Source: a virus (Duplodnaviria; Caudoviricetes). From it: 58,588 bases of DNA. The notes beneath the pieces are model-generated. The model searched no databases. It was given only the letters and a program-made list of their open reading frames with translations, and was not told the origin of the DNA. The translations under genes and the position numbers were made by a program. Each line of letters begins with the position of its first letter. Positions within the stretch are counted from its first letter, which is position 1. Shown in pieces: positions 40,432-58,011 of the stretch. The stretch covers positions 1-58,588 of IMG/VR virus record IMGVR_UViG_3300046167_000685. One strand, written 5' to 3'.

Positions 40432-41876
40432 ACTAACCAAGCCCTAGCCTTCTCGCCCAGCACCTGACCGGCGAGATTGATCTTGCCGCGTAGGGCTTTT
40501 AGGATCTTCTCGTCTATCGTGCCCGGCGATACCAGATCGATATATGTCACCTTGTTAGTCTGACTGATGCGGTGCGCCCGGTCCTCGGACTGTAAGCGCG
40601 TAGCAAGGTCATAGCTGTTGTTGTAGTAGATGACCGTATTAGCAGCAGTCAGCGTGATGCCCATACCGCCGGTCAACGGCTGGCCTACAAAGAAGCGCAG
40701 CTCGCTGTCCGGCTCTTGGAACCTGTCCACGATGGCCTGCCGCTCATCTTGTGGTGTGTCACCATAATAGGTTGCGACCGCTTCGGGCCCAAAGCGGTCG
40801 CGCAGGGCCGAAGCTATCTGTTGAATGCCGTGTGTATACGACGCCCAAATGATAGCTTTTCCCTGTAGCTCTTCTGTAATCTCCAGCAGCTCTTTCAGAC
40901 GATTGTTCTCGACGGGCTGTATCTCGCCCTCGTCCGGTTGCAAAAAACCACAGCATATCTGTTGTAGACGCATGATTTGCGTCAGGACGCTGGCAGTTGT
41001 AGCCAGCTCACCGTTTTCCAGCTTCGCCAGTGCCAGCTTCTTCATCTGACCGTACAGGCGCTTTTGTTCATCTGTTAGAGGCACGTCTCGCCGCGTGTAC
41101 AGCTTGTCTGGCAGGTCAAGGCAGTCCTCTTTCAGGACGCGGTTGCTAAACCGGTCCAGCCGCTCGTTGAGTTCATCAAGCCTGCGGTAGCCTACAATCT
41201 CTTGAAACGCCCGGTTGCCCATCTTACGGTTCTGAACAACGGCGTATCGGTTTTGGAAAGCAAAGTAACTCTTGAAGTTAAGCGCATCTTTAGACAGGAA
41301 GGCGCACTGGCTAAACAGGTCCATTGGGCTCTTAGTAATCGGCGAGCCGGTCAGGATGCGTTTGTACTTAGCGTAGTTTGACAACGTAAGAATATTCTTA
41401 GAGCGCGTTGCTTTACGATTTTTTATAGTCGTGCTCTCGTCTACAATCATCATGTTGTCCGGAAACTTTTGAAGAAAAGCAACCGCAGCTTTAGTTCCTC
41501 GCGACGTAGACAATGCCTCAACATTCATAACGAATATTCTCATCCCGCGGAACTCGCCAAACAGGAACTCCCACATCTCATCTTGGTATCTTTTTGTGAT
41601 GGCGGGCGTCCAACGCATGATCTGCCGGTCGATATGGTCTGGGAGATGTGTAGGTATTTCTCCTTTTACCCAGTTGTCATAGACGCCCTTCGGTGCCACT
41701 ATGAAGGCAGCATTGATCTTCTCCATCATGTGCAAGATGCCGATGGTATCAATAGCCACCTTGGACTTGCCTGTTCCCATCTCCATGAACAGCGCATAAT
41801 ACTCCGCGGCCCACGAATCTGTGAGTGCCTGCCTCTGGTGGTCAAACGGTTCAGTCTTGAACTTGTACTTTTTCAC
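40428..41876 (-). CDS. SNF2-family helicase
   Basis: MEMGTGKS, VDES, LTGSP, GGMGITLT, QSEDRAHR motifs; likely start is GTG at 41876 after a GGAGG RBS. Confidence 0.9.
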   Translation of the reverse strand: MKKYKFKTEPFDHQRQALTDSWAAEYYALFMEMGTGKSKVAIDTIGILHMMEKINAAFIVAPKGVYDNWVKGEIPTHLPDHIDRQIMRWTPAITKRYQDEMWEFLFGEFRGMRIFVMNVEALSTSRGTKAAVAFLQKFPDNMMIVDESTTIKNRKATRSKNILTLSNYAKYKRILTGSPITKSPMDLFSQCAFLSKDALNFKSYFAFQNRYAVVQNRKMGNRAFQEIVGYRRLDELNERLDRFSNRVLKEDCLDLPDKLYTRRDVPLTDEQKRLYGQMKKLALAKLENGELATTASVLTQIMRLQQICCGFLQPDEGEIQPVENNRLKELLEITEELQGKAIIWASYTHGIQQIASALRDRFGPEAVATYYGDTPQDERQAIVDRFQEPDSELRFFVGQPLTGGMGITLTAANTVIYYNNSYDLATRLQSEDRAHRISQTNKVTYIDLVSPGTIDEKILKALRGKINLAGQVLGEKARAWLV

Positions 41877-41886
41877 GATTTCCTCC

Positions 41887-41927
41887 TTGACTATGCGAAA
41901 ATATAGGCATATATACAGGTCTGTCAA
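41887..41927. promoter_or_regulatory. Overlapping divergent sigma70-type promoters
   Basis: Plus: TTGACT(41887)-17 nt-TATATA; minus: TTGACA(41927-41922)-16 nt-TATATT(41905-41900). Confidence 0.65.
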
Positions 41928-41966
41928 GACCCGATAGGCGTCTTTAATCACGAAAGAGGAATCACG

Positions 41967-42563
41967 ATGAGCGATATCTTTGAAGCTATGGAGGAGGACT
42001 TCGAAAAGAAGTTGAACACCTCCGTCGAGAAGCTCGATCAGAGCGACTTGAGTAGCGTAGCCGGTCTGGCTAAAGCAATCCGTGAACAAGAGGACTTTGT
42101 TGCAAGTCTTGAGGGCGACCTCAAAGCTGCGAAAAAGAAGCTCCTTAAGATGACGGATGAAGAGCTCCCAACTATGTTGGCCGAGATTGGTCTATCCAGC
42201 TTCAAACTGGATGACGGTTCCGAGGTCACAGTCAAGCAAACATATGGTGCATCTATTACTAATGGCACTAACGGCACTGTGGACAACCGTCCGCAGGCTT
42301 ACGCATGGCTGCGTGACAACGGTCACGGCGATCTGGTCAAGAATGTCATCTCCTGTCAATTCGGTATGGGGGAAGACGAAAAAGCCGAGAAGTTCCGCAG
42401 AATTGCAGAACAGAGCGGTTACACGGCTGAGCAGAATACATCTGTTCACTCGTCAACTCTACGCGCCTTTGTTAAGGAGCGTTGTGAAGCTGGCGACGAG
42501 TTCCCTATGGAATTGTTTGGGGCCTACGTCGGACAGAAAGCCATAATCAAGAGGAGCAATTAA
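41967..42563 (+). CDS. Replication-module hypothetical protein
   Basis: AYAWLRDNGHGDLVKN...VHSSTLRAFVKE; directly upstream of SSB. Confidence 0.75.
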   Translation: MSDIFEAMEEDFEKKLNTSVEKLDQSDLSSVAGLAKAIREQEDFVASLEGDLKAAKKKLLKMTDEELPTMLAEIGLSSFKLDDGSEVTVKQTYGASITNGTNGTVDNRPQAYAWLRDNGHGDLVKNVISCQFGMGEDEKAEKFRRIAEQSGYTAEQNTSVHSSTLRAFVKERCEAGDEFPMELFGAYVGQKAIIKRSN

Positions 42564-42566
42564 GCC

Positions 42567-43358
42567 ATGGCTGGTAAAAAAAATGAGGTTGCAGAGACCA
42601 AATCTGCGGAAGTAGTGCAATTCGATCCGACCATGTTCGAGGCAGATGCCGGAATGGGTCTGGAAAACATGGGCGCTGAAGATCTTGCGCTGCCGTTTCT
42701 GAAAATTCTGGGCGGTATGAGCAAGGAACTGGATGTATTGGAAGACGCTCGCAAAGGTGACATTTACAATACCGTCACTGGAGCCGTTTTAAAGGGCAAG
42801 GAGGGCGTTAGAGTCGTCCCGTGTGCCTACCAGCGTCGGTTCATCCGTTGGGCCCCTCTGGGCGAAGGGACGGGCGCTCCTGTGGCCGTCTACGCACCGG
42901 GCGAGGCCATGCCGAAGACGAAGCGGTCTACCGAGGACAATAAAGACTATGTCGAAGACGGTTCCGGTGACTACATAGAAGAGACGCACCAGCACTATGT
43001 GCTCGTGCTGCATGAGAACGGTCAGATAGAGACCGCGCTGGTTGCCATGAAGTCTACGCAGCTCAAGAAGTCGCGTAAGTGGAACAGCATGATCTCTTCC
43101 CTGACTGTGCAGGGCAAGAACGGCCCGTTCACCCCGCCACGCTTCAGCCACGTATACCTGCTGAAAACGCAACTCGAGGAGAACTCTAAGGGTAGCTGGC
43201 ACGGCTGGGAAATGAGCCGCGTCGGCCCAATCGAAGACATGGCAACTTACCAGCGTGGTAAGGACTTTGCCGCCAGCATTGCTGCCGGAGATGTCGTCGT
43301 GAAGCATCAGGACGAGTCCGCGAGCGGGGATATTAACCCCGACGACGTACCGTTCTAA
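42567..43358 (+). CDS. Single-stranded DNA-binding protein
   Basis: DLALPFLKIL, MKSTQLKKSRKWNSMI; acidic DDVPF C-terminal tail. Confidence 0.7.
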   Translation: MAGKKNEVAETKSAEVVQFDPTMFEADAGMGLENMGAEDLALPFLKILGGMSKELDVLEDARKGDIYNTVTGAVLKGKEGVRVVPCAYQRRFIRWAPLGEGTGAPVAVYAPGEAMPKTKRSTEDNKDYVEDGSGDYIEETHQHYVLVLHENGQIETALVAMKSTQLKKSRKWNSMISSLTVQGKNGPFTPPRFSHVYLLKTQLEENSKGSWHGWEMSRVGPIEDMATYQRGKDFAASIAAGDVVVKHQDESASGDINPDDVPF

Positions 43359-43363
43359 TCAGT

Positions 43364-43403
43364 TGGGGCGGCAGGCGTTTGCACGGTTTCACCTGTCGCC
43401 CCA
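43364..43403 (+). promoter_or_regulatory. 12-bp intergenic stem-loop without U-tract
   Basis: tggggcggcagg / cctgtcgcccca between SSB and primase. Confidence 0.5.
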
Positions 43404-43421
43404 TCCTTCACGGGGGCACAC

Positions 43422-44960
43422 ATGTCAGTTGATACTTTTTCAGCTATATTTGACGGGCTAAAGCTCGCCTATGGCACATATAAAATCGAAAAACAGCAGG
43501 CTAACGGTAAGAATACTGGTAGAGCTGCCATCATCCGCGAACCGCGGAACACGGCTCTTTGGGAGGGCCATCTGTCTGGTAAGGGCCGCGGCATTGGCAT
43601 CATCCCCATCAACGAGGACAACAAGTCTGTTTGGGGCTGCGTAGACGTTGACCAGTATCCGCTCGACCATAAGGTTCTAGTCGAGAAAATTCGTAAGCTG
43701 AAGCTGCCGCTTGTCGTCTGCCGGTCAAAGTCCGGCGGGGCGCATTGCTTCCTGTTCACCACCGAATGGGTGGATGCCAAGGACATGCAGGCCACGCTGC
43801 AACAAATCTCCGCTGCGCTGGGCTACGGCGGCAGCGAAATATTTCCAAAACAGATCAAGCTCAACCTTGACCGCGACGATGTCGGCAACTTTTTGAACCT
43901 GCCGTACTACGACGCCGAGGACGGGCTGCGCTACGCTATTAAAGACGACGGCACCTCTGCCACCCTCGAGGAGTTCTTTGCGCTCTACGAGAACTACAAG
44001 CAGACGCCCGAGCAACTGACGGCGCTACAGGTGGGCGATCCTGAAGAGGTATTACCCATGAAGGACGGCCCGCCGTGCCTTCAGTTCCTGCTCAAGAACA
44101 AGATATCCGAGGGTGGCCGCAACAACGGGCTGTTCAACATCGGCGTCTATCTGCGTAAGGCATACCCGGATAGCTGGGAATCGGAGATATTGACATACAA
44201 CATGCAGTATCTGGAGCCGCCGCTGCCGCTCAGCGAGGTCAACATCGTTGCCAAGCAGCTTGAGAAAAAAGACTACGCCTACCGGTGTAGCGACTCTCCA
44301 ATCAACGCGCACTGTAACAAGGACCTGTGTCAGACCCGCAAACATGGCATCGGTGCAGCCATCCAAGGCGCGGCAATCGCGAACCTTCGCAAGTATAACT
44401 CAAACCCGCCGGTCTGGTTTCTGGATGTAAATGGCGAGCCCGTCGAGCTGGATACAGAGGCTCTGATGAGCCAACCCGCGTTTCAAAAGTGCTGCATGGA
44501 GCAGCTTAACTTCATGCCCCGGTCTGTTAGCAAGCAGGTTTGGGAAGGCCGTATTGGCGGGCTAATGAACGAAATGCGGGACAATGAAAGCGCTATCATA
44601 GATGTTGCCGAAGACGCCAGCATCAACGGCCAGTTTTACAGCTATCTAGAAGAGTTCTGCGCCCATATGCAAAAGGCCAATGATAAGGAAGAAATATTGC
44701 TCAAGCGTCCATGGACGGATGAGGAGACCAATACGACACTCTTCCGTTTGAAGGATTTTGAGGCGTATCTCAAGCGCAACAAATTCTTTGAGTACAAACT
44801 GCACAAAATCGCCCAACGCCTACGCGACATGGGAGGTCAAAGCCGGGCTCTCCGTATTAAGGGGCGACTTGTTAAAGTTTGGGAAGTGCCTGCTTTCGAC
44901 GAAGCAGACGTAGACATTAAAACGCCATCCTTTGGCAGTGGTGAAGGAGCACCCTTCTGA
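43422..44960 (+). CDS. Primase (AEP-like with PriCT domain)
   Basis: WGCVDVD, RSKSGGAH, LNLPY; PPCL...EGGRNNGLF; Cys cluster. Confidence 0.75.
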   Translation: MSVDTFSAIFDGLKLAYGTYKIEKQQANGKNTGRAAIIREPRNTALWEGHLSGKGRGIGIIPINEDNKSVWGCVDVDQYPLDHKVLVEKIRKLKLPLVVCRSKSGGAHCFLFTTEWVDAKDMQATLQQISAALGYGGSEIFPKQIKLNLDRDDVGNFLNLPYYDAEDGLRYAIKDDGTSATLEEFFALYENYKQTPEQLTALQVGDPEEVLPMKDGPPCLQFLLKNKISEGGRNNGLFNIGVYLRKAYPDSWESEILTYNMQYLEPPLPLSEVNIVAKQLEKKDYAYRCSDSPINAHCNKDLCQTRKHGIGAAIQGAAIANLRKYNSNPPVWFLDVNGEPVELDTEALMSQPAFQKCCMEQLNFMPRSVSKQVWEGRIGGLMNEMRDNESAIIDVAEDASINGQFYSYLEEFCAHMQKANDKEEILLKRPWTDEETNTTLFRLKDFEAYLKRNKFFEYKLHKIAQRLRDMGGQSRALRIKGRLVKVWEVPAFDEADVDIKTPSFGSGEGAPF

Positions 44961-45535
44961 TGAAAGACCGTAACGACTACATTTACGAGCAGCGCGTAGT
45001 GCAGCTCCGCACCTATCAATCCATCGCAGATGAGGTGGGCCTGTGCCGCGAGCGTGTGCGCCAAATCGTAGTTGCCGTGTCTCAGCGCATTCGCTGGGAG
45101 CAAGAGATTGAAGCCCTGCCGGACAAGCCGGACAAGATGTGCCACCTCGTCCTGCCCCGCAGGGTCCGTAACTGCCTCAAGAACGAGTTCCTGTTCGACC
45201 TGACATTTGAGGAGTTTATCGAATACGCCGAGAATAAGAAGCTCGACAACATACCCAACCTCGGCAAGGGCAGTATCACGTTACTTGAAACGCGGCTCGC
45301 GGAGCAAGGTTATGTCCTGCCCAATCGACTACGTAACAAAGCCAGCCTGCTTCGTGATGCAGTCCAAACCAAGCGCGAAGTTCGGTACGCAAAGTATCGG
45401 CAGATTATGAAATGGCGAGAAGAGCGGCGCAGCATCAAATGGATCGCTTATGAAGTGGACATGAGCTACGGCGGTGTTGTTCAAATCATTCAACGCTTCC
45501 TTGCCAACCCCGAGGCCCTCGATGGAACAAAATAA
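44960..45535 (+). CDS. Transcription regulator: sigma70 region 4 HTH + RNAP alpha-CTD-like + HTH
   Basis: TYQSIADEVGLCRERVRQI; LPRRVRNCLKNE...IPNLGKGS; SIKWIAYEVDMSYGGVVQI. Confidence 0.65.
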   Translation: MKDRNDYIYEQRVVQLRTYQSIADEVGLCRERVRQIVVAVSQRIRWEQEIEALPDKPDKMCHLVLPRRVRNCLKNEFLFDLTFEEFIEYAENKKLDNIPNLGKGSITLLETRLAEQGYVLPNRLRNKASLLRDAVQTKREVRYAKYRQIMKWREERRSIKWIAYEVDMSYGGVVQIIQRFLANPEALDGTK

Positions 45536-47090
45536 AATATTCCGAATCTACGGCCCGCCCGGCACCGGTAAGACCACCGCGCTGCTCAACAAAGTGGACG
45601 AAGCTCTCAGTAACGGCGTAGATCCCGCGCATATCGGATACTTCGCTTTTACTCGTCAAGCCGCTAACGAGGCGATTGAACGTGCCTGTAAACGCTTTCA
45701 CCTCGAGCCCACGCAACTGCCATGGTTTCGTACACTGCACAGCTTTGCTCTGCGCCTGTCAGGCATACGCCAAGAACAAGTTATGCAGACAGAGCACTAC
45801 AAGGAGCTGGGCCACGCTATCGGGTTTGATCTGACTGCTGGCGGTCAAGGTATAAGTGAAGACGATGCTTTTGACCTGACCAAAAATGACAACCCTGTCA
45901 TCAGCCTAATCAATTTAGCTCGCCTTCGTAAAGTTCCGTTGCGTGAACAATACGACGAGAGCGGTATGGATATGGATTGGAACCGGGTGAAGTACATTTC
46001 CGACAGCCTGACAGAATACAAAAACAGGTTTCAGCTATATGACTTCACAGACATGCTAGAGGTGTTTGTGCGAGAAGGCGCAGATTTCTGCCCTCGTCTT
46101 GCCATCACCTTTATCGACGAGGCGCAGGATTTATCGCCATTGCAGTGGGACGTAGCTCATATACTCGAGAAACATTCCGAGCGCATCTACTGCGCCGGAG
46201 ATGACGACCAAGCGATTTACCGCTGGGCCGGTGCAGATGTAGAACACTTCATCAACCTCAACGGTGGATACGAGGTGCTCGAACAATCGCACCGCGTACC
46301 TGCTGCCGTCCACCCGCTGGCCGAGCGCATAGCCAAACGCATCCACCGCCGCGTCCCTAAAACCTACCTTCCCCGTAAGGACCCGGGGCTCGTGGAGCGC
46401 GTACCTGATGTAAACTATTTGGATTTTAATGATGGATCGTGGCTCGTGCTGGCACAGGCCGGTTACTTTTTAGCACCCGTGACCCAAGAACTCAAAAGCC
46501 GGGGCATCCTCTACAGCTATCGCGGACGAAGGTCCATTTCCGAAAAACTGAGTGAAGCCATCAACGGCTGGGAGCAAATGAGGAAGGGTCACCGAATAAC
46601 AGGCGTGGCCGCACGAGCCGTGTATAGTTATATGTCTGTCGGCGAGCGGGTCAAGCGCGGATTCAAAAAACTACCCGGACTTGATGACGATGAGCCAGTG
46701 TCACTGGATGAGCTGATCGCGCATCACGGCCTTATGGAACTGGTGCACATCATGGGCACCCCACGCATCGAGGAAAACATTCGGGACTGCATATGGCACG
46801 AAGCCATGGACAAGCTGCCCAGTGCCGACCGTGCGTACATCACGGCACTACTGCGCCGGGGCGAAAAGTTTAATGCCACGCCCCGCATTGAGCTGTCCAC
46901 GATTCACGGTTCCAAAGGCGGGGAAGCCGACAACGTCGTCCTGTTTACCGATCTATCCCCCGCAGCAGCAAAAGCCGCTGAGCAGTCCCCTGACGACCTG
47001 CACCGGGTGTTCTACGTAGGCGTCACGCGCACCAAGGAAAACCTGTATTTGGTGGACCCCGAAGATGACAACAGGAGCTACTTGATATGA
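45522..47090 (+). CDS. UvrD/Rep-like SF1 helicase
   Basis: GPPGTGKT, TLHS, IDEAQD, GDDDQAIY, STIHGSKGGE, YVGVTR. Confidence 0.9.
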   Translation: MEQNKIFRIYGPPGTGKTTALLNKVDEALSNGVDPAHIGYFAFTRQAANEAIERACKRFHLEPTQLPWFRTLHSFALRLSGIRQEQVMQTEHYKELGHAIGFDLTAGGQGISEDDAFDLTKNDNPVISLINLARLRKVPLREQYDESGMDMDWNRVKYISDSLTEYKNRFQLYDFTDMLEVFVREGADFCPRLAITFIDEAQDLSPLQWDVAHILEKHSERIYCAGDDDQAIYRWAGADVEHFINLNGGYEVLEQSHRVPAAVHPLAERIAKRIHRRVPKTYLPRKDPGLVERVPDVNYLDFNDGSWLVLAQAGYFLAPVTQELKSRGILYSYRGRRSISEKLSEAINGWEQMRKGHRITGVAARAVYSYMSVGERVKRGFKKLPGLDDDEPVSLDELIAHHGLMELVHIMGTPRIEENIRDCIWHEAMDKLPSADRAYITALLRRGEKFNATPRIELSTIHGSKGGEADNVVLFTDLSPAAAKAAEQSPDDLHRVFYVGVTRTKENLYLVDPEDDNRSYLI

Positions 47091-47377
47091 ACCGCAAAGA
47101 GGTCCTCGAGAAGGCAGAGAGCTTGGTCAACGGCCCAAGGGCCCAAGACTACGGCGATGCCTACGACAACCATGAGCGCATAGCCAACATGTGGTCCGTG
47201 TTGCTCGGGACAAACGTAAGTGTCTCACAAGTCTACCAATGTATGGTTGCGGTCAAGCTAGCAAGGCTTATAGTGACGCCAGACCACGAAGATAGCTGGG
47301 TAGATATTTGCGGCTACGGCGCACTAGGAGGAGAAGGCAATGGCCTTACAGATGGCGATGTTCGCACCAAAAAGTGA
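47087..47377 (+). CDS. DUF6378-like protein
   Basis: LVNGPRAQDYG...KLARL...DSWVDICGYGA. Confidence 0.7.
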   Translation: MNRKEVLEKAESLVNGPRAQDYGDAYDNHERIANMWSVLLGTNVSVSQVYQCMVAVKLARLIVTPDHEDSWVDICGYGALGGEGNGLTDGDVRTKK

Positions 47378-49232
47378 GTGGGTGCCGCCCGCGGAACTGC
47401 CAGACATCTTCGACGCCAAGCAGATTGCTATCGACGTTGAGACCAGAGACCCCAACATCAAGTCCAACGGTCCCGGCTGGCCGACCGGGGACGGGGAGGT
47501 GGTCGGCTATGCTATAGCAGTGGACGGCTGGTCCGGTTACATACCCACTCGCCATGAGCATGGCGGCAACCTAGACGAGCGCATCGTCAGCAAGTGGCTC
47601 AAGAAAGTGTTTGAGTCCCCTGCCGACAAGATCATGCACAACGCACAGTATGATGCGGGGTGGATACGGCGCATGGGCTTTACCATCAACGGGCGCATCA
47701 TCGACACGATGCTGGTAGCTGCCCTGCTAGATGAGAACCGGTTCAGCTACAGCCTCAACGCCCTGTCCTACGATCTGCTCAAGAAAGTAAAACAGGAAAA
47801 GACACTACAAGAAGCAGCTCGTGAGTTTGGTCTAGACCCAAAAGCAGAGATGTGGAAGATGCCCGCCATGTATGTCGGGCCATATGCAGAGGCCGACGCG
47901 GAACTAACGCTAGAGCTTTGGGGCTATCTTTCGGCTCAGCTAACAAAAGAAGAGCTCTGGCCGATAGCTGATCTGGAGCTCAAGCTTCTACCGTGTCTGG
48001 TGGACATGACATGGCGCGGCGTCCGCGTGGACCAAGACCGTGTAGAGCGCACCCGCAACCACTTGATCAAGGAAGAAAAGGCCACGCTTGCCAAGATTAA
48101 AAACGTAGCCGGTCAGGATGTAGAGCTTTGGGCCGCAGCATCAATAGCGAAAGCCTTCGACAAGCTTAGCATCTCATACCCACGCACTGAGAAGAACGCA
48201 CCGTCCTTCACCAAGTCGTTTCTAGCGGACCACCCGCACGAGCTCGCACAGCTAATCGTCCGGGCCCGCAACCTAAATAAAACAAGCGGCACATTCATTA
48301 ACACCATTATGAAGCACTGCCGCGCAGACGGACGCATCCACGGGCACATCAACCAGATCAGATCGGATGACGGCGGCACCGTATCGGGCCGCATATCTAT
48401 GTCCAACCCCAACCTGCAACAAATCCCGGCCCGCGACCCTGAGCTCGGCCCTATGATCCGCAGTCTGTTTCTACCGGAAGAGGGCGAGCAATGGGCGGCG
48501 ATTGACTTCTCGCAACAGGAACCGCGGATCTTGGTCCACTACGCCTATGTGTATGGCCGGTCCCGCGGCGCACAGATGGCAGGAGTCGAGGAGTTCGTCA
48601 CCGCTTACCGAGAAGACCCGGACATGGATTTTCACACCATGGTGGCAGAGATGGCTAACATCCCGCGTAAGCAGGCCAAAACAATAAATCTGGGAATGAT
48701 GTACGGCATGGGCGTCAACAAGCTATCCGACCAGCTCGACATCGAGGTAGATGAAGCCAAAGCGCTAGTCAGCCAGTACCACGACCGCGTCCCCTTCGTT
48801 AAAGGATTAATGAACGGCGTGATGAACAGCCTCAATAGCAGGAGCTCAAGCGGCTCTGTGCGCTCTATCTTAGGCCGCAAATGTCGGTTTGAGCTCTGGG
48901 AACCAGCTACTTTTGCCATGCACAAAGCCCTACCATACAAAGATGCGCTCAAAGAGTATGGAGAAACTACTCGGCTAAAAAGAGCATATACCTACAAAGC
49001 CCTTAACAGGCTCATACAAGCGTCAGCAGCAGACATGACTAAACAGGCCATGGTGAATATTTATGAACAAGGACGCCTGCCTCTGGTGCAAATCCACGAT
49101 GAAATCGCCATGTCTGTGAAAAATCGTGAAGATGCAAATACTGTTGCTGAAATAATGGAAAATGCTGTACCGTTGGAGGTGCCAAGCAAATGCGATGTTG
49201 AGATCGGCCCAAGCTGGGGCGAAGCAAGCTGA
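47340..49232 (+). CDS. polA: DNA polymerase family A with 3'-5' exonuclease
   Basis: DVET, HNAQYD exonuclease motifs; GRISMSNPNLQQIP, DFSQQEPR, KTINLGMMYG, IHDE. Confidence 0.95.
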   Translation: MALQMAMFAPKSEWVPPAELPDIFDAKQIAIDVETRDPNIKSNGPGWPTGDGEVVGYAIAVDGWSGYIPTRHEHGGNLDERIVSKWLKKVFESPADKIMHNAQYDAGWIRRMGFTINGRIIDTMLVAALLDENRFSYSLNALSYDLLKKVKQEKTLQEAAREFGLDPKAEMWKMPAMYVGPYAEADAELTLELWGYLSAQLTKEELWPIADLELKLLPCLVDMTWRGVRVDQDRVERTRNHLIKEEKATLAKIKNVAGQDVELWAAASIAKAFDKLSISYPRTEKNAPSFTKSFLADHPHELAQLIVRARNLNKTSGTFINTIMKHCRADGRIHGHINQIRSDDGGTVSGRISMSNPNLQQIPARDPELGPMIRSLFLPEEGEQWAAIDFSQQEPRILVHYAYVYGRSRGAQMAGVEEFVTAYREDPDMDFHTMVAEMANIPRKQAKTINLGMMYGMGVNKLSDQLDIEVDEAKALVSQYHDRVPFVKGLMNGVMNSLNSRSSSGSVRSILGRKCRFELWEPATFAMHKALPYKDALKEYGETTRLKRAYTYKALNRLIQASAADMTKQAMVNIYEQGRLPLVQIHDEIAMSVKNREDANTVAEIMENAVPLEVPSKCDVEIGPSWGEAS

Positions 49233-49290
49233 GCTTTTTCATGGTTTTCCTCCCTAAACTGGCCCTGAGCTCCGCTTGGGGCCCTTTTTC
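49233..49290 (+). ncRNA. polA 3' UTR with terminator; candidate antisense RNA to the SNF2 helicase start
   Basis: ctttttcatggttttcctcc (49234-49253) mirrors 41868-41886, followed by hairpin 49261-49283 and a T-run. Confidence 0.45.
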
Positions 49291-49339
49291 TCTTGTATCT
49301 CTGCCACTTGTCCTATATATTCCCTTACAGGAGGTGTAA

Positions 49340-49480
49340 ATGGATACATCTAAATGGAAATCTGTGCTTGTACCGATTGAGGTATACGAACAGATTCGCA
49401 AGATAGCTCGCCAAGAAGGACGGACCATTAGTGGTCAGCTCCGGATCATGTGGGATATCTACAGAAAACACCAATCCTGA
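49340..49480 (+). CDS. Ribbon-helix-helix-like regulator (46 aa, not in ORF track)
   Basis: MDTSKWKSVLVPIEVYEQIRKIARQEGRTISGQLRIMWDIYRKHQS; RBS AGGAGG; promoter-like TTGTAT...TATATT upstream. Confidence 0.7.
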   Translation: MDTSKWKSVLVPIEVYEQIRKIARQEGRTISGQLRIMWDIYRKHQS

Positions 49481-49571
49481 CGGCTGAATAACGAGTGTCA
49501 ATTCAGTTGACATCTTTTTTTAGCTATAGTATGGGATAAGTTCTATTTAATCGTATAGCGAGGGTTTACTA

Positions 49572-49811
49572 ATGCTAAGAAATCTACTCAAAATATTGTT
49601 TCCGAGCTTCTTTGAGGAGCCGGAAAGAGCGCGAGACAAGAAAGGCCGGTTGATGGGCGACGATGCGTCCACACCAACTTTCAACGAAGCATGGGTCGGG
49701 GGCAAAGCCCCGGTACAACAGAAAGCCCCACCGAAAAAGCGGGGCAGGCCGGTAGGAAGCAAGAATAAACCGGCAGCTAAAAAGAGAGGGCGTCCGAAAA
49801 AAAATGCTTGA
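49572..49811 (+). CDS. Small protein with two AT-hook-like motifs
   Basis: RARDKKGRLMGDDASTPTFNEAW; KKRGRP twice. Confidence 0.7.
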   Translation: MLRNLLKILFPSFFEEPERARDKKGRLMGDDASTPTFNEAWVGGKAPVQQKAPPKKRGRPVGSKNKPAAKKRGRPKKNA

Positions 49812-50232
49812 TGCTACTTTAGTGTGTTTGGCTACAGCTATTTATTTTGAGTCCAGAGGCGAACCATTCGTCGGACAGTCCGCTGTAGCCCACGTTGTGC
49901 TAAACCGGGTCGAAGATACCCGGTTCCCCAACGACATCTGTTCTGTAGTGAAGCAGGGCCCCACATATGCGTGGAAACCCGACTTCCCTGTCCGCAACAT
50001 GTGCCAGTTTAGCTACTACTGCGATGGCAAGTCTGACCAGCCAACCGATGAACAGGCATGGCAGACCGCGGTCCTCGCGGCTTTTGGAGCTGTGTCTGGC
50101 CGTACATATGATCCCACTGAAGGCGCAACTCACTACCATGCCGATTATGTCAATCCCGCATGGGCTGAAGTTAAATACAAAACCGTCCGGATCAATGACC
50201 ACATATTTTATAAATGGGAAGGAGACAGATGA
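49804..50232 (+). CDS. Cell wall hydrolase (SleB/Hydrolase_2 family)
   Basis: CLATAIYFESRGE...AVAHVVLNRV...CQFSY...GATHYHA. Confidence 0.9.
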   Translation: MLDATLVCLATAIYFESRGEPFVGQSAVAHVVLNRVEDTRFPNDICSVVKQGPTYAWKPDFPVRNMCQFSYYCDGKSDQPTDEQAWQTAVLAAFGAVSGRTYDPTEGATHYHADYVNPAWAEVKYKTVRINDHIFYKWEGDR

Positions 50233-50390
50233 AACCTTGTCCAGAATGTGGCGGTAAGGGAGAATGTGAATATGAAGTCGCCGTATCTGCACCAATGGCG
50301 TGGAGCGGCGGCTGGCTCGAAGGACGCATTATGGAATGCCAACTGTGTGAAGGAACAGGAGAAGTAGATGAGGATGAGGCCGAAGAATAG
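50229..50390 (+). CDS. Stand-alone DnaJ-type zinc finger (53 aa, not in ORF track)
   Basis: CPECGGKG ... CQLCEGTG. Confidence 0.7.
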   Translation: MKPCPECGGKGECEYEVAVSAPMAWSGGWLEGRIMECQLCEGTGEVDEDEAEE

Positions 50391-50559
50391 AGAGCTTCAG
50401 TACCCTACCATCGGGGATCCGGGCGTGATCCAAAAACGGCTGGACGCAGGCCGCTGCCCAAAGTGCGATACCCAGCTCAAAGAGCCCACGCGCTGCGGCT
50501 CTTGTAAACTGCAACTTCCCGAAAACTTAGCTCCTAAAAAGTCCTTGTCTTTCCCATAA
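50368..50559 (+). CDS. Small zinc-ribbon protein
   Basis: CPKC...CGSC. Confidence 0.6.
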   Translation: MRMRPKNRELQYPTIGDPGVIQKRLDAGRCPKCDTQLKEPTRCGSCKLQLPENLAPKKSLSFP

Positions 50560-50576
50560 GATCGCGTATGTTGGGA

Positions 50577-50626
50577 TCGTTCCCGTAGTTGGGCCCCGGA
50601 GAGAAATCTCCGGGGCTTTTCTTTTT
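50577..50626 (+). ncRNA. Candidate trans-acting sRNA (anti-RBS seed plus terminator)
   Basis: Promoter-like TTGTCT-16 nt-TATGTT upstream; seed TCGTTCCCGTAGTTG; 10-bp stem with GAAA loop (50593-50616); T-run. Confidence 0.55.
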
Positions 50627-50629
50627 GTG

Positions 50630-50658
50630 TTGACTATGTATGCGATAAGTCTTATATA
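50630..50658 (+). promoter_or_regulatory. Sigma70-type promoter with operator-like palindrome
   Basis: TTGACT-17 nt-TATATA-CAGG, same hexamers as the 41887 promoter; TATGCGATAAGTCTTATA at 50639-50656. Confidence 0.7.
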
Positions 50659-50686
50659 CAGGTTACACCAACTAGGGAGAACTTAA

Positions 50687-51541
50687 ATGCCGACACTCCG
50701 GGAAATGTCAGACGCCGCGGAAGCGCGGGGGCATAAAACATTCAACACCGGCAAGCCGTGCGTCAGGGGCCATACTTGTGACAGATATGTCGGGGTGCCG
50801 TTTGGTTGCAAAGAGTGCGTCAGGGAAAACAAGTACGAGCGAATAAACCCGGACAGCCCAAGAGGCATTGCTAAGGCCAAAGGTTTAAAGCGATACCGCG
50901 ACGGCAAGCCCTGTAAAAAGAAAGGGCATATCGCGGAGCGCTTCACCATGAGCGCACGATGCTGCGAGTGCGAAGCAGAACGTCAGCGCAGCCCAGAGGC
51001 AAAAGCCTACCGTGAAAAGTGGCGGCAGGAAAACAAAGAGCACTCTCAGAAATGGGCGAGAGACAGGTATCAAAACCCGGATTCCCCGCACCGGGAGGAA
51101 TACCTGCGGCGCAAAAGGCAGCATAGCCGGGACAACATCGAATACTACAAGCGGAAAGACAAGGAACGCCGCGACAGCTTTACGGAACAAGACAAGGAAA
51201 GAAACAAGCGCAACGCTCGGAGGTGGGCTAATCAAAACAAGGAACGTGTGTCTGCTTATGGGCGCTTGAGCCATAACAAACGTAAACGGGCAAAGCTCAA
51301 AGGGGCAAGCTGGGATTCTTTTGTGCCAATTTACGAGAAGCGTGAGCGCCTAACGAGAGAAACCGGCGTTAAGCACCACGTTGATCATTATTACCCGCTA
51401 ACTCACGACAGAGTGTGCGGGCTGCACGTGCCTTGGAACCTGCAAGTAATTACCGCTGCGGAAAACTTGGCTAAAGGCAACAAGATGCCCGAAGAGTTTT
51501 ACGGGCCTGACCACCAACTAGGGAGAGACCACAATGCGTAA
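50687..51541 (+). CDS. HNH endonuclease
   Basis: HHVDHYYPL...[23 protein letters not shown]; two GKPC..GH..R..C.EC repeats; flanked by a 15-bp direct repeat. Confidence 0.85.
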
Positions 51542-51719
51542 GAAAGAAGAGCTGTTCGATATCGTCCGCGGCATGGAGTATACTGATGCCGTGGCCGCAG
51601 TCTCCAGCGCAATCAACGCGCAAACGTCCACCATTGCAGCCAAGGGTGATTATAGCCGTGAGGCCGTCGAAACAGCAGAAAACCTGCTTGCGGCGTGGTT
51701 AAGGGTACAACGCGGATGA
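51534..51719 (+). CDS. Hypothetical protein
   Basis: 61 aa; CAACTAGGGAG leader. Confidence 0.65.
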
Positions 51720-51961
51720 GCGACGATCTCGAAAAGCAGTTCGACTATGCAGGCGACGAAATGAACGCCCTGCTCGATCAACTAGAAACCGACGGGTTTG
51801 ATACCGGCGCGGTACTGGGCGGAGCTCTTACAGCTCTTCTGTTCCGGCTCGTAGTCGCAAGCCCCAACGGCAGCACCGCAATCGGTATGCTGTCTTCAGC
51901 CATGCACCAAGCAGCAACCATTGCCCGTGCATATGACGAGGAAGAGGAGACCAAACATTGA
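51716..51961 (+). CDS. Hypothetical protein
   Basis: ATG overlaps the previous stop (ATGA). Confidence 0.6.
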   Translation: MSDDLEKQFDYAGDEMNALLDQLETDGFDTGAVLGGALTALLFRLVVASPNGSTAIGMLSSAMHQAATIARAYDEEEETKH

Positions 51962-52227
51962 CTAATTTTACTTTGAGCGAAGAGGCGCGGCGCGAGTTGT
52001 TGCAGTCTTACAACGAACTGCGTACGGCTATGTCAAACATTTGGGAATGCCAAGACCTGTGGATGTCTGACATTACCAACCTCGAAAAGTTGGTGAACCG
52101 GATGCAAAGGCACTTGGACTTTGCTCAACCAACAGAAGGCCACGCATATATGAATTATGTGCTGGCAGAAGATAACAAGCCCGCACCCAAAAAACGTGGA
52201 CGGCCCGCAAAGGGAGCAAAAAAATGA
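51958..52227 (+). CDS. Hypothetical protein with AT-hook-like tail
   Basis: TTG start with GAGGAG RBS; PKKRGRP. Confidence 0.6.
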   Translation: MTNFTLSEEARRELLQSYNELRTAMSNIWECQDLWMSDITNLEKLVNRMQRHLDFAQPTEGHAYMNYVLAEDNKPAPKKRGRPAKGAKK

Positions 52228-52409
52228 CAAAGCTTAATGAACATCAAGCAGCAGCCGCGCTGCTGAACCAAGCTATCCACGCCGTCAACGATTTGTGGCT
52301 GGAAGCAGATGGCGACGATAAGCCCTTCTTAGATCAAGCAATCAGCAAGCTGCACGAAGCGCAGTCCCTAATGCTGAAAGCGCGGTTGCGAGTTGACAGC
52401 CCAAAATAA
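52224..52409 (+). CDS. Hypothetical protein
   Basis: 61 aa; GGGAG RBS. Confidence 0.6.
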   Translation: MTKLNEHQAAAALLNQAIHAVNDLWLEADGDDKPFLDQAISKLHEAQSLMLKARLRVDSPK

Positions 52410-52454
52410 AGGTCTTAGTTTTTCCCATATCAACTACATAAAGGGAGAAAGCTG

Positions 52455-52682
52455 ATGGCTAAATTTTACCACTGGCAGGGAGAAGGGTCCGACGGCAACG
52501 TCTACGAAGGCGAATATAAGTTCACTGCAAAAGAAGCAAAGAACGATGCAATCAAACACGGGATGCCTCAACCAGACGGGTTCACCATCTTTGAGACAAA
52601 GGTTACCGACACGGCAACCACGCTCCGTAATCTCTTAAACCAAGAGATGAAAATAATCGGAGAAGTAAAGCCGGTGGGATAA
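52455..52682 (+). CDS. Hypothetical protein (own promoter and terminator)
   Basis: TTGACA-17 nt-TAGTTT upstream; GGGAG RBS. Confidence 0.65.
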   Translation: MAKFYHWQGEGSDGNVYEGEYKFTAKEAKNDAIKHGMPQPDGFTIFETKVTDTATTLRNLLNQEMKIIGEVKPVG

Positions 52683-52712
52683 CTCCCATCCTGGACCTAA
52701 CTTTTGAAAACG

Positions 52713-52747
52713 TAAGGGGTGCGGCACGATGTCGCACCCCTTATTTT
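52713..52747 (+). terminator. Intrinsic terminator
   Basis: taaggggtgcggca-cga-tgtcgcacccctta followed by tttt. Confidence 0.75.
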
Positions 52748-52876
52748 GTCGTGTATAGTATAAGATAAGTCGCATATGGGACATCTCTTTTAACTCATTG
52801 ATTTATAATATAAAGATAAGAAGAGCGCAAAAGCGCCCACGCTATTTGAAACCGTCAACAACTACGGGAGGTCAGT

Positions 52877-53185
52877 ATGACTGACACCAACGCCGCATCT
52901 GTCTGGGTCGTCGAGAGCAAGCTGCTCGAAACCGCCGATAAGGAATACGAGTGGGGGGACTGCATGTCCTTTACCTCGATCCTTATCGACGAGTGTAACG
53001 GCCATCGGTTAGACGAGGTCGAAGACAACACCTTCGATCTAGGTTACGTACGCGCCGTGGAATACGCTTCCCGAATGGGTAGGATGTATGCCGCAACTCA
53101 ATACTTTAGGGTTACCCTTAAAGACAGCCGTTTCGATAACGTCGGAAAAGAGTTCGTCTTCAAGGGGACAAGCCAAAGGACCTGA
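52877..53185 (+). CDS. Hypothetical protein
   Basis: 102 aa; CAACTACGGGAGG leader. Confidence 0.65.
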   Translation: MTDTNAASVWVVESKLLETADKEYEWGDCMSFTSILIDECNGHRLDEVEDNTFDLGYVRAVEYASRMGRMYAATQYFRVTLKDSRFDNVGKEFVFKGTSQRT

Positions 53186-53211
53186 GAAGCATAAACCGCG
53201 GCTCACGGATC

Positions 53212-53239
53212 AGGGCTCCGCTTCGGCGGGGCCCTTTTT
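53212..53239 (+). terminator. Intrinsic terminator
   Basis: agggctccgc-TTCG-gcggggccct followed by a T-run. Confidence 0.85.
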
Positions 53240-53478
53240 GTTACTGTTACCTATATAGGGAGAAAATTAAAAAAAATAAAAAACACAAAAAATATGCGGT
53301 AACATCGGTAACAAAAGTAACAGTACTCTGTAATCGTTACTCACTAAGGATTACAGAAGTATAGGAGTGTTACTTTTTGTGTTACTTATTTGAAACCAAA
53401 AAAGTAACAGAGGAAATGACCTTAAAGGGGGGTTCGCGGGATTTTTTTTAAAAATATTTTTTGCTCTATATAAGTAAC
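53240..53478. repeat. AT-rich region with GTAAC/GTTAC iterons (candidate replication origin or packaging site)
   Basis: 10 GTAAC/GTTAC copies, three at 9-bp spacing (53299, 53308, 53317); long A-tracts; non-coding. Confidence 0.55.
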
Positions 53479-53522
53479 CTCTGTAAAAAGGATGGGAGTT
53501 GACCTTTTTAACTGAGGAAACG

Positions 53523-54155
53523 ATGGCGGCAAGAAAGAGAGCGTCGAAGCTTACTGGCAAACCCATGGAGACCCGGGGCCGTCCCCCGGTGACAGCACAA
53601 TCGGCTTTGACCCGAAAGCAGGAGCTTTTTGTCAAAGAGCTGGTCAGTAAGGACGGTCAGATAACTTTGAGAGAAGCAGCGGTCAACGCGGGTTACTCTG
53701 TTGGTTCCGCGCACACCCGAGCCTATGAGCTCACCAATCCACACATCTCGCCGCATGTTGTCGCTGCTATACAGGCTTATCGCAGAGAGCTAGATGAAAA
53801 GTATGGTGTGACCTACCAACGTCATCTACGGGACCTTCAACAGATACGGGACACTGCTTTGCAAAACGGGGCTTACTCTGCTGCCGTTCAGGCGGAATAT
53901 CGGCGAGGTCAGGCACAAGGGGACATTTATGTTAGCAAATCCGAGATTCGTCACGGCTCGATAGACAGCATGAGCAAGGACGAGGTTTTGAAAGCCCTCG
54001 AGGAGATTAAGAATAGTTATGCCCCGGTCACCATCAACATCACCCCAGAAGATGAAAATGCCTCCAATCGCGACAAAGCGAGAGGCAGGCTTTTACAAGC
54101 AAGTGAAGGAAGCAGCGCAGAGGTCGAGACGGAAGCTGCTTTTGACGAGGATTGA
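53523..54155 (+). CDS. terS: Terminase small subunit
   Basis: LTRKQELFVKEL...EAAVNAGYS...AYEL; GAYSAAVQAE; RBS GAGG before ATG 53523. Confidence 0.75.
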   Translation: MAARKRASKLTGKPMETRGRPPVTAQSALTRKQELFVKELVSKDGQITLREAAVNAGYSVGSAHTRAYELTNPHISPHVVAAIQAYRRELDEKYGVTYQRHLRDLQQIRDTALQNGAYSAAVQAEYRRGQAQGDIYVSKSEIRHGSIDSMSKDEVLKALEEIKNSYAPVTINITPEDENASNRDKARGRLLQASEGSSAEVETEAAFDED

Positions 54156-54480
54156 AAATTACATTGGGGCCGGGATTCCTGACCTGATGATATGTGATGA
54201 GGTCGGTGACTTTCATCTGGTCGAGCTCAAGTACATTACCGGCAACGCGGTAACACTCCGTCCGTCACAAGTGGCGTGGCTATCTCGTCACCAGCACTCT
54301 AGCTGCTGGGTTCTGATTAAGCGACAGACCAAGGCTACTGAACCGTCTGAATGCCTCTTGTATCCGGCAGCGGCCGCGGTCGATCTGAAGATGGACGGCA
54401 TCGAGAAGGTTGAGCCCTTGTTACGTTGTCAACAGCCTTTTCACTGGGACACAATATTTGACTTGATTTGTCCGCAATAA
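54058..54480 (+). CDS. PD-(D/E)XK nuclease (VRR-NUC/Holliday junction resolvase-like)
   Basis: RIEN...GIPDL...VELK...LRPSQVAW. Confidence 0.75.
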   Translation: MPPIATKREAGFYKQVKEAAQRSRRKLLLTRIENYIGAGIPDLMICDEVGDFHLVELKYITGNAVTLRPSQVAWLSRHQHSSCWVLIKRQTKATEPSECLLYPAAAAVDLKMDGIEKVEPLLRCQQPFHWDTIFDLICPQ

Positions 54481-54521
54481 TCCCATATATCAGGGAGACA
54501 ACTTCAACACGGGAGATTGCG

Positions 54522-54818
54522 ATGAAAAAACAAGTTTTATATGCCGGTGATCAGATGAGACTTGGCAACACCATTAAAGCGCTGGCGGATATGATTCATA
54601 TGTTTGAAGTGTTCGATCAGAACGTCCAAGGTAAAGGGGAGTTTTCTGGTGTGGGTGTTTTGGCTCCGATGAAAATTCATAATCACCCGGATAACCCCGA
54701 GTATAACCCGAATGCCGCCACCCACATGAACGAAGAAAGCGACTTTGACAAAATCGAGCGGATGCAAAAAATAGTCCGGGTTATTGGTGACATTCGTGAA
54801 AAGTGGGTGACTACCTGA
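54522..54818 (+). CDS. Hypothetical protein
   Basis: Promoter TTGATT-17 nt-TATATC (54463-54491) and CAACACGGGAG leader place the start at 54522. Confidence 0.65.
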   Translation: MKKQVLYAGDQMRLGNTIKALADMIHMFEVFDQNVQGKGEFSGVGVLAPMKIHNHPDNPEYNPNAATHMNEESDFDKIERMQKIVRVIGDIREKWVTT

Positions 54819-54946
54819 TGTTTTTGTTCCGCTTGATCGGCAAGCTTCTTTATGGTGACGACTTCGACAAATATTCGGGGAACCAGACAAGTCAGAAATA
54901 CATTTCAAAAGATCGTCGCATGAAACCCCGACGACGCCGCAAATAA
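54818..54946 (+). CDS. Small basic protein (42 aa, not in ORF track)
   Basis: TGATG coupling; MFLFRLIGKLLYGDDF...KPRRRRK. Confidence 0.55.
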   Translation: MFLFRLIGKLLYGDDFDKYSGNQTSQKYISKDRRMKPRRRRK

Positions 54947-54951
54947 AAAAG

Positions 54952-54979
54952 AAGGCCCGCCATATTGACGGGCCTTTTT
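54952..54979 (+). terminator. Intrinsic terminator overlapping the next -35 element
   Basis: aaggcccg...cgggcctt plus T-run; contains TTGACG. Confidence 0.7.
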
Positions 54980-55030
54980 GTTTTCTATATATGTGGGATA
55001 AATCGCATATAACTACGGGAGCAATTAACC

Positions 55031-55801
55031 ATGTTGAAAACTACAGCAATAAGCAGCGCAAAGAAAACCGCCGGGTGCGCTGTCACATACCGGGCCGGGA
55101 GCTCGGAAAAATTTGGAACTTGCCCGGCATCTTGTGAGCTAAACCCGAGCGGGCGCGGTTGCGGCGAAGGACAAATTGATTTTGATTATCTCGACGCCGT
55201 ACTGGACGCAAAACCCCGGCGCGGCTTTTCGTTTACTTATTCGCACTTTCACCCGCTTTTCTGGTCTCACAAATTGAGCCCTAAAAAAACCGTGATTAAC
55301 TACAGCGCGGCCGACCCGGACGCTGCATTGCTGGCACAACAGGCAAGCCCTGCCCCTGTTGTCACCGTCGTAAAGCCTGAATATTGGATATCTGCCCCGG
55401 TCTATGAATACGAGCTCGGTGTTGCCGGTTTGCATAAATATCGGCGCGTCGGTGGCATCCGGGTTGTACGTTGCCCGGCAGAATATAACGACTCGGTAAC
55501 TTGCCGGAATTGCGGCGGGAAGGACGGCCCGTTATGTGCCCGCTTGAACCGCGATTTTATCATCGGGTTTACAGCGCACGGGGCCAGCAAGAAAAAAGCC
55601 GCCACCGATGATCCGGGCGGGTGCTATGCGGCGGGCGGCAATGTTGCCTTGCACTGGACCGCCACCGCGAACCAACAGCAGCCGGAGACCGACGGCGACC
55701 GCCTGCGGGCATTTGTTAAAACCCTGCCCCCGGGCTCGGTTATTCGTCACCATGTGGCCGGTGATATCGGTCTTGATAAAGGAGCAGAAAACAATGGTTA
55801 A
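55031..55801 (+). CDS. Cys-rich putative Fe-S protein (gp88/DUF7227-like)
   Basis: TCPASC, CPA...C..C...LC, IIGFTAHG, CYA, RHHVAGD. Confidence 0.55.
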   Translation: MLKTTAISSAKKTAGCAVTYRAGSSEKFGTCPASCELNPSGRGCGEGQIDFDYLDAVLDAKPRRGFSFTYSHFHPLFWSHKLSPKKTVINYSAADPDAALLAQQASPAPVVTVVKPEYWISAPVYEYELGVAGLHKYRRVGGIRVVRCPAEYNDSVTCRNCGGKDGPLCARLNRDFIIGFTAHGASKKKAATDDPGGCYAAGGNVALHWTATANQQQPETDGDRLRAFVKTLPPGSVIRHHVAGDIGLDKGAENNG

Positions 55802-55997
55802 ATATTCTGAAAAACTAATCGAACAGGGCTTAGCCGACACCCGGGCCGAGTCACTGGCCCGGGCAATGGATAGCTTGCACGGGTCGGTCGCGAGAATGGA
55901 CCAGCGCAACCTAGATCTGTTGCGAGAGCTCGAGCCCGGATTGATCGAGTCATTGAACCGATACGCCAGAACCGAGGACATATTGCGGGAGTTTTGA
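55794..55997 (+). CDS. Hypothetical protein
   Basis: ATG at 55794 with AGGAG RBS. Confidence 0.6.
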   Translation: MVKYSEKLIEQGLADTRAESLARAMDSLHGSVARMDQRNLDLLRELEPGLIESLNRYARTEDILREF

Positions 55998-56020
55998 ACC
56001 CGCAGCCGACCCCCCCTTTA

Positions 56021-56050
56021 TAAGCCCGCCACCCGGCGGGCTTATTTTTT
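56021..56050 (+). terminator. Intrinsic terminator
   Basis: taagcccgcc-accc-ggcgggctta followed by a T-run. Confidence 0.85.
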
Positions 56051-56136
56051 GGGAAATTAACTTGCGTATGGTGGGATAATGTGAGACAACACCCAGACGG
56101 CCCAAGCCGGGCCGCATTTTAACGGGAGCATAACCA

Positions 56137-57417: not shown

Positions 57418-57441
57418 ACACCGGCCCGCAGCCGACCCACT

Positions 57442-57987: not shown

Positions 57988-58011
57988 CCGGCCAGCAGCC
58001 GAACCCATCCG

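Follow-up and report, generated by a model that had tools for sequence, protein, structure and literature searches.

Why does the 3' end of a phage replication operon carry a short stretch that is nearly antisense to the start of another gene of the same phage? The question arises in IMG/VR record IMGVR_UViG_3300046167_000685 (Caudoviricetes), a complete record of 58,588 bases that carries direct terminal repeats, the whole of which is hereinafter designated the window. An earlier note on this DNA had pointed out a 20-mer (CTTTTTCATGGTTTTCCTCC) directly after the stop codon of polA (TGA, 49230-49232) and ahead of a terminator, and had read it as a device by which transcripts of the operon shut off a divergently transcribed SNF2-family helicase. 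The sequence confirms the 20-mer in this position; the tail element is the 3' untranslated region (3' UTR) of polA. With slightly better than even confidence, we take the polA tail to be a cut-down riboregulator module of the alpha-r8 type (suhB/MmgR/SisA), consisting of an anti-Shine-Dalgarno (anti-SD) core and a terminator that together sit at the 3' end of the replication operon. On this view a family of marine phages has kept a shortened anti-SD module of alpha-r8 likeness within a 3' UTR.

The polA tail resembles the core and terminator of alpha-r8 RNAs

Scanning positions 40000-58588 (18.6 kb) against Rfam gives one clear match, to RF00519 (suhB/MmgR), which covers the polA tail (Table 1). 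The aligned core reads UUUUCCUCCCUAAACU in the window and GUUUcCUCCCUAgACU in the RF00519 consensus. Core and terminator are equally spaced in the two, the hairpin of the window beginning 0 nt after the core. Minimum free energy (MFE) structures predicted for a 59-nt and a 112-nt context leave the core single-stranded or place it in a loop, as for a family member from Puniceispirillaceae. Six other terminator-like places in the genome score just 10-18.4 bits against the same model, so the match is carried by the core and not by the hairpin, and none of the other strong terminators of the window carries a core of the 16-letter type. By arithmetic, the chance expectation of the 16-letter core is about 1e-4 in 58.6 kb, both strands included. 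Scores at the same place in relatives are 37.0 (L003), 34.0 (L020), 33.1 (L001), 28.3 (L007) and 34.3 bits (L293). No second copy of the module was seen in the window. The shorter motif CCTCC has 19 plus-strand occurrences there, of which those at the helicase start and the polA tail are intergenic; two further sites that were read (~1672 and ~54061) are coding sequence.

The 16-letter core is present on at least 120 GTDB stretches. Among the 80 titles listed, 70 name an alphaproteobacterial taxon (genera which we take to belong to Alphaproteobacteria), 6 name Proteobacteria only and 4 name other groups. The family layout is evident in the 122 evaluable bacterial instances: 97 have the short 5' helix, 115 a terminator right after the core and 93 both, and the window copy has the terminator without the helix. 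At least 120 IMG/VR stretches also carry the core, with a short helix in 68 and a terminator in 80 of the 118 instances read; some of these copies, including some among L201-L318, may be host flanks of predicted prophages. Because full-length copies above the cut-off exist on other viral contigs outside the polA family (L209, 60.3 bits; L304, 45.9 bits; L216, 41.4 bits), capture of such a module by a phage is plausible. A donor search with the module (blastn-short against 238 bacterial and viral loci) found no source closer than the phage family itself. Under the alpha-r8 reading, the module would most likely derive from an alphaproteobacterial host.

Two further cases of pre-terminator sequence were seen in passing. 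In another phage group (IMG/VR loci L225, L242, L287, L289, L290, L316 and L318), the same alpha-r8 core and a terminator stand without a 5' helix; in L225 a Mu-gpT-DE RNA (RF03012, 62.6 bits) lies ~50 nt downstream, so the core module there probably occupies the 3' region of a major head gene like that of Mu. In the right arm of the window, the strong plus-strand terminators at 55998-56045, 57417-57461 and 57990-58040 have a C-rich motif just 5' of the hairpin (GCAGCCGACCC, GCAGCCGACCC and GCAGCCGAACCC, respectively), a second kind of conserved pre-terminator sequence whose suhB Rfam match is at most 11 bits.

The core is kept while polA has diverged

Conservation was assessed in the best 80 of 599 confirmed IMG/VR PolA relatives (79-95% identity), and tails were counted in the 77 that have at least 150 nt after polA. 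A hairpin followed by a T-run lies within 200 nt of polA in 64 of the 77. The hexamer CCTCCC occurs in 51 tails, 21-33 nt ahead of the T-run in every one, and its extended form TCCTCCC in 46. In 45 of the 51 CCTCCC-bearing loci, the identity of polA to the window at four-fold sites is 0.28-0.49; synonymous sites are saturated while the hexamer is unchanged, which indicates that the core is under selection. The bases between CAT and CCTCC, by contrast, vary without restraint among relatives. The terminator stems, judged by eye, differ among relatives through changes in both arms.

The module also keeps its place when its neighbor changes. In L007-L017, L020, L022, L024 and L025 an extra hydrophobic open reading frame (ORF) of ~26-30 amino acids (aa; MTTGFGVPW... 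or similar) directly follows polA, an ORF that the window and its closest relatives lack, and the module remains beside the terminator even where this small ORF parts it from polA. The canonical 16-letter core occurs in two separate phage clades, that of the window and that of L020.

Among cultured phages the picture is sparse. With the 72-nt module as query, blastn over 50,697 phage records gave nothing beyond chance-level matches (17-26 nt, E 0.6-7), most of them in Bacillus phages. The nearest cultured PolA relatives, none of them close, are phage DSL-LC04 (57% identity; host given as Gammaproteobacteria) and Pelagibacter phages (49-51%). A different gene abuts polA in HTVC023P and 023Pt_psg01. 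In DSL-LC04 (L326, 2457-2540) a T-run, CTCCTC and a strong terminator follow polA, an arrangement that may have decayed from that of the module or arisen independently and is too weak to call.

Strong pairing with the helicase start occurs in few relatives

The tail nearly equals plus-strand positions 41868-41886, the complement of the helicase SD sequence, GTG and first codons, as the earlier note had stated, and the duplex it described, of about 19 base pairs with two G:U pairs and one bulged U, was recovered when written out by hand. Its energy is -27.0 kcal/mol (RNAduplex). Of 80 start regions, that of the helicase pairs best (next -22.1, median -13.0 kcal/mol); it is also the best site bar the tail's own complement in 40-nt windows of both strands (next -25.0, in a coding region), a genome-wide margin of a small 2 kcal/mol. 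A gapless search allowing up to 3 mismatches recovers the tail alone, because the helicase match needs an indel. The margin of the helicase start also depends on both sites resembling ideal start regions: the minus-strand SD energies are -11.8 at the tail and -11.4 at the helicase, versus a median of -6.6 for 70 plus-strand starts, and none of the 70 plus-strand genes begins M-K-K. The complement of the U-rich flank CTTTTTCATGG provides the ATG and AAAAAG of this start-codon look, and the complement of the core resembles a perfect ribosome-binding site because that of an anti-SD seed must. Within this genome, the match between tail and helicase is somewhat beyond chance.

The tail, as the end of the operon mRNA or as a processed fragment, might accordingly be read as a dedicated antisense repressor that shuts off the SNF2 helicase as operon transcripts accumulate. 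The 19-pair duplex spans both SD and GTG and is the best among start regions and non-self sites, and the leader running from the promoter-like sequence at 41927..41900 is short, so that a duplex would block initiation. We nevertheless consider this reading unlikely in view of the relatives. Helicase starts are included in 25 of them, 14 of which also have a CCTCC tail, giving 15 genomes with the window. Cognate energies are -27.3 in the window and -27.0 and -24.2 in its two closest relatives (L002 and L005), in which the pairing is kept; the other 12 of the 15 range from -5.6 to -13.9. These 12 have helicase SD sequences of the GGAGA or GAGG type and other first codons, and conservation of the tail extends to genomes whose helicase start does not resemble it, 9 of the 12 keeping CCTCCC in a T-rich context and 3 having a purine-rich stretch instead. 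Mean duplex energies over the 15 genomes are equal for cognate and non-cognate pairs (-13.25 versus -13.21), so there is no co-variation. The window-type helicase start is common only to L002 and L005. Most tails from other loci, too, form good duplexes with the helicase start of the window clade (-17 to -30), so strong pairing is a property of that one start and not of co-evolution.

The check that the earlier note had proposed, conserved or compensated pairing in relatives, thus comes out negative, with 3 of 15 genomes pairing strongly and compensatory change not seen. Its interpretation stands insofar as a conserved module resembling a regulatory RNA closes the replication operon; dedicated shut-off of the helicase is not supported. 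As far as these predicted duplexes go, a link to the helicase is possible solely as a feature of the window's lineage, in which the helicase is a lineage-specific candidate target.

Weighing the alpha-r8 reading

The reading of the polA tail as a reduced alpha-r8 module draws on observed features: likeness in sequence and layout, purifying selection on the core, a predicted unpaired core and the missing 5' helix that marks it as cut down. A side remark of the earlier note, that the element is a generic match to ribosome-binding sites and could hit host mRNAs, would fit such an identity. Several points weigh against it. The RF00519 score of 35.5 bits is below the gathering threshold of 41, bacterial members score 50.3-67.9 bits versus 28.3-37.0 for polA-tail modules, and 8 of 12 relatives scanned give no RF00519 match at E <= 0.1. 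The short 5' helix of alpha-r8 RNAs is absent, non-standard pairs being flagged by cmscan and the 16 nt upstream having an MFE of 0. The strict 16-letter core is kept in 7 of the 77 relatives, and 26 are without CCTCCC, 13 of them still with a terminator. Alpha-r8 RNAs are described as independent genes with their own promoter (PMC1273637), whereas the phage tail is the 3' UTR of a protein-coding operon: a sigma-70 consensus scan, completed by eye, gave no plus-strand promoter-like site upstream in the polA 3' end, other promoter types being outside its reach. The targets are predicted duplex partners, and an anti-SD sequence could arise by convergence. Two features are left unexplained by the alpha-r8 reading, the retention of CAT in about half of the relatives and the conservation of the U-rich flank; a processing site, an Hfq site or pairing across the start codon of a target are guesses.

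Convergence can be put as a reading of its own, in which the function as an anti-SD RNA is the same and the 3' UTR evolved in the phage, the alpha-r8 likeness being analogy and not descent. The motif UUUCCUCCC is close to the complement of strong phage SD sequences (GGGAG and GGAGG in many start regions), and the sub-threshold match, the missing family helix and the rarity of the strict core all accord with it. However, the match runs past the anti-SD into UAAACU and the terminator spacing, and the canonical core turns up in two separate phage clades; we give independent origin little credence. We judge it equally improbable that the tail is an operon terminator only, its C-rich stretch being a passenger of a captured host terminator or a cis aid to termination or mRNA stability. 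Such a reading would account for the frequent strong terminator, the promoter not found by the sigma-70 scan, the weak family score without the helix and the 13 relatives with a terminator and no CCTCCC. A passenger should have decayed, yet CCTCCC is kept in the 45 loci whose polA has diverged to saturation, and the core is unpaired and outside the hairpin; a C-rich single-stranded tract is not known to take part in intrinsic termination.

That the minus strand starts an antisense ORF here (67 aa, MKKLSLL..., from the ATG at 49242) or a mini-ORF is highly improbable and was rejected, both a conserved start and a conserved frame being lacking among relatives: although the SD, at -11.8 versus a median of -6.6, is one of the strongest that the genome has and is followed at a 6-nt spacing by ATG and AAA AAG, and although CAT or CAC stands 4-8 nt from CCTCC across a variable spacer in 22 of 42 distinct sequences (CAC replacing CAT in L047 and L053), the other 20 have no start codon at a usable distance, the ORFs run from 5 to 85 aa in all three frames relative to polA as the antisense of whatever lies upstream, the consensus scan finds no minus-strand promoter right of the site, the T-run is on the plus strand, and an anti-SD core reads as an opposite-strand SD by definition.

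Genome context of the replication operon

In a crude greedy ORF picture, the plus strand of the window carries 72 of 83 ORFs; the SNF2 helicase is the largest of the 11 on the minus strand, the remainder of which are mostly short. The features around the operon are collected in Table 1.

Table 1. Coordinates of the polA tail, the replication operon and neighboring features in the window
Feature	Position	Strand	Remarks
Tail 20-mer CTTTTTCATGGTTTTCCTCC	49234-49253	+	Directly after polA stop, ahead of terminator
U-rich 5' flank CTTTTTCATGG	49234..49244	+	In place of the alpha-r8 short 5' helix; unable to form one
Anti-SD core TTTTCCTCCCTAAACT	49245..49260	+	Exact match to the 16-letter alpha-r8 core pattern; CCTCCC at 49249-49254
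Intrinsic terminator	49261..49289	+	10-pair hairpin 49261-49283, T-run 49285-49289; strong
RF00519 match	49227..49298	+	Model positions 1-77 of 77; 35.5 bits, E 3.9e-4
Replication operon	~41967-49232	+	Pam3 gp33-like, Pam3 gp34-like, AEP primase, sigma-region-4/HTH, UvrD helicase, DUF6378, PolA
polA, family A DNA polymerase + 3'-5' exonuclease	47340..49232	+	Last operon gene; Pfam DNA_pol_A 214 bits, DNA_pol_A_exo1 48 bits
SNF2-family helicase	40428-41876	-	Pfam SNF2-rel_dom 82.6 bits, Helicase_C 55.2 bits
Helicase SD, GTG start (41876..41874) and first codons	41868..41886	-	Complement of CTTTTTCACGATTTCCTCC
Helicase promoter-like TTGACA-16-TATATT	41927..41900	-	11/12 consensus matches
Promoter-like TTGTAT-17-TATATT for next gene	49293..49321	+	3' boundary of module; by eye
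Ribbon-helix-helix (RHH) gene, 46 aa	49340..49480	+	Separate transcription unit; Pfam RHH_5 25.0 bits (cut-off 26), Arc 17.5 bits

The minus-strand boxes of the helicase promoter (TTGACA, 41927..41922; TATATT, 41905..41900) are interleaved with a plus-strand promoter-like pair, TTGACT (41887-41892) and TATATA (41910-41915). Each -35 box lies beyond the start site of the opposite promoter, so only one polymerase at a time could occupy 41887-41927. The pattern TTGAC...TGTCAAG is kept in 25 of 26 helicase start regions (the window and 25 relatives), the exception, L025, having GTCAAG. At the other end of the operon, CTTG...TATATA recurs in relatives at the place of the promoter-like sequence ahead of the RHH gene, where the consensus scan made no call.

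Two other ideas about the tail were dropped. A replication origin at the polypyrimidine tract finds no echo in the GC-skew profile, which has no switch near 49.2 kb, and pairing of the core in cis with the right arm of the terminator or with the RHH SD amounts by hand to at most 4-5 weak pairs; the RHH start is outside the 12 best duplex partners, and the MFE fold pairs the RHH SD elsewhere. Two marine metatranscriptomes (shares 0.07 and 0.04) contain contigs over 48700-49700 that belong to relatives ~90% alike. One contig covers the polA end, the module and the next gene; contigs show no ends, strands or levels, and the libraries may contain DNA.

Elsewhere in the window, downstream of a terminator at 50591-50618, lies a promoter-like sequence (TTGACTATG...TATATACAGG) nearly identical to the plus-strand promoter at 41887-41919, and the genes at 50687 and 51534 share a start leader (CCAACTAGGGAGA). 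The large-terminase region (669-2100) is split into several shorter ORFs (669-1568, then 1814-1957) in the crude ORF picture, a pattern that points to a frameshift, to an intron or to a poor choice of ORFs.

A proposed role for the module

If the alpha-r8 reading is right, every transcript of the polA operon would end in an anti-SD module. The module would work while still joined to the mRNA or, once cleaved in the U-rich stretch after the stop codon, as a ~55-nt fragment; this stretch presumably fits an RNase E-type site. It would bind Hfq via its hairpin and U-tail, pair with ribosome-binding sites of the GGGAGG type and block their translation; by analogy with the bacterial family, such action would probably be in trans. 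Likely targets would be host mRNAs that are normally under the host's own alpha-r8 RNAs, to which the phage SNF2 helicase mRNA may have been added in the window lineage.

A more far-reaching version, which we offer tentatively and regard as doubtful, is that a whole family of abundant marine phages has hard-wired a host small RNA (sRNA) seed into its replication mRNA, that polA transcripts are alpha-r8 mimics reprogramming the host regulon via Hfq, and that the seed was co-opted once more for the SNF2 helicase after the helicase start had drifted into complementarity. Transcription of the replication genes would then reprogram the host alpha-r8 regulon (nutrient uptake and carbon storage in the bacteria studied) without an sRNA gene or promoter, and the same seed would tie the helicase to operon output in the window lineage. 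Alpha-r8 RNAs (MmgR, SuhB, SisA-D) are among the most widespread alphaproteobacterial riboregulators and, in the species studied, are described as controlling carbon storage, catabolite repression and many other mRNAs (PMC7143759, bioRxiv 10.64898/2025.12.09.693200, PMC12559287). A phage-borne seed module would be a simple viral takeover of this regulon and a natural minimal sRNA made of seed and terminator. The polA family would offer dozens of natural seed variants, comprising strict cores, one-base insertions and losses. The locus also holds a caution for sequence readers: the opposite strand of an anti-SD seed looks like a perfect ribosome-binding site, and it was this likeness that led the earlier note to the helicase.

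Comparison with known systems

The closest likeness is to the alpha-r8 family itself. According to its description (PMC1273637), the suhB element is a small non-coding RNA that possesses a promoter and a terminator of its own; its conserved sequence falls in unstructured parts, and its one conserved helix besides the terminator is short and near the 5' end. MmgR of Sinorhizobium meliloti is reported to be 77 nt long, Hfq-dependent and equipped with an anti-SD motif (PMC7143759), and SuhB of Sphingopyxis granuli to bind the thnR SD region (bioRxiv 10.64898/2025.12.09.693200). In Caulobacter crescentus, SisA-D are described as pairing via a conserved 10-mer with an anti-SD signature and as being countered by the sponge CrfA; SisA, which is Hfq-associated, pairs through this 10-mer upstream of the start codon, and lateral transfer is held responsible for part of the family's spread (PMC12559287). 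The phage tail has the same unpaired core in the same orientation and in the same place, directly before a U-tailed terminator. It differs in having neither the short 5' helix nor a further 5' stem-loop, in scoring lower and in standing on a virus record. A literature search at the level of listings turned up no paper on phage-borne alpha-r8 RNAs.

Reduction to this module has a parallel in the alpha-r15 (AbcR1-AbcR2) family. The second hairpin of suhB, together with the terminator, is described as a reusable module common to several families whose 5' domains are variable or missing (del Val et al. 2012, PMC3346310). The phage element is likewise a minimal suhB module; it differs from the AbcR RNAs, whose seed is placed in a 5' hairpin loop (PMC3346310), in lacking a 5' domain and in being fused to an mRNA. 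Weak SorX matches (RF02784, 25-27 bits, cut-off 46.6) occur at the place of the polA module in L053 and L070. Separately, the alpha-r8 copy of a Rhodobacterales metagenome-assembled genome (L092, 6595-6680) has a weak SorY match (RF02651, 42.8 bits, cut-off 111), and that of L304 a weak SorX match; on the strength of these latter two, the Rhodobacter Sor RNAs may share the alpha-r8 module.

Placement at an mRNA end recalls sRNAs derived from 3' UTRs, such as CpxQ and, in Rhodobacter sphaeroides, SorX, which are released from mRNAs. Like the phage tail, these combine a seed with the parental terminator and need no promoter of their own; they are released by processing, whereas processing of the phage tail is a proposal only. 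SroC, which is described as being processed from the gltIJ mRNA (PMC12559287), belongs with them in these respects.

Like the phage tail, the icaR mRNA of Staphylococcus aureus carries in its 3' UTR a C-rich anti-SD motif immediately ahead of the terminator; in icaR the motif pairs with the SD at the mRNA's own 5' end. This interaction is in cis; for the polA operon no conserved partner SD was found, and the polA start is outside the 12 best partners.

Finally, RNAs borne by phages are known to enter host sRNA networks, as is proposed here for the polA tail: AsxR and AgvB of enterohaemorrhagic Escherichia coli (EHEC) prophages are described as sponges that antagonize host sRNAs (PMC12559287). 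In polarity the polA tail corresponds to the host sRNA, and it would therefore be a mimic and not a sponge.

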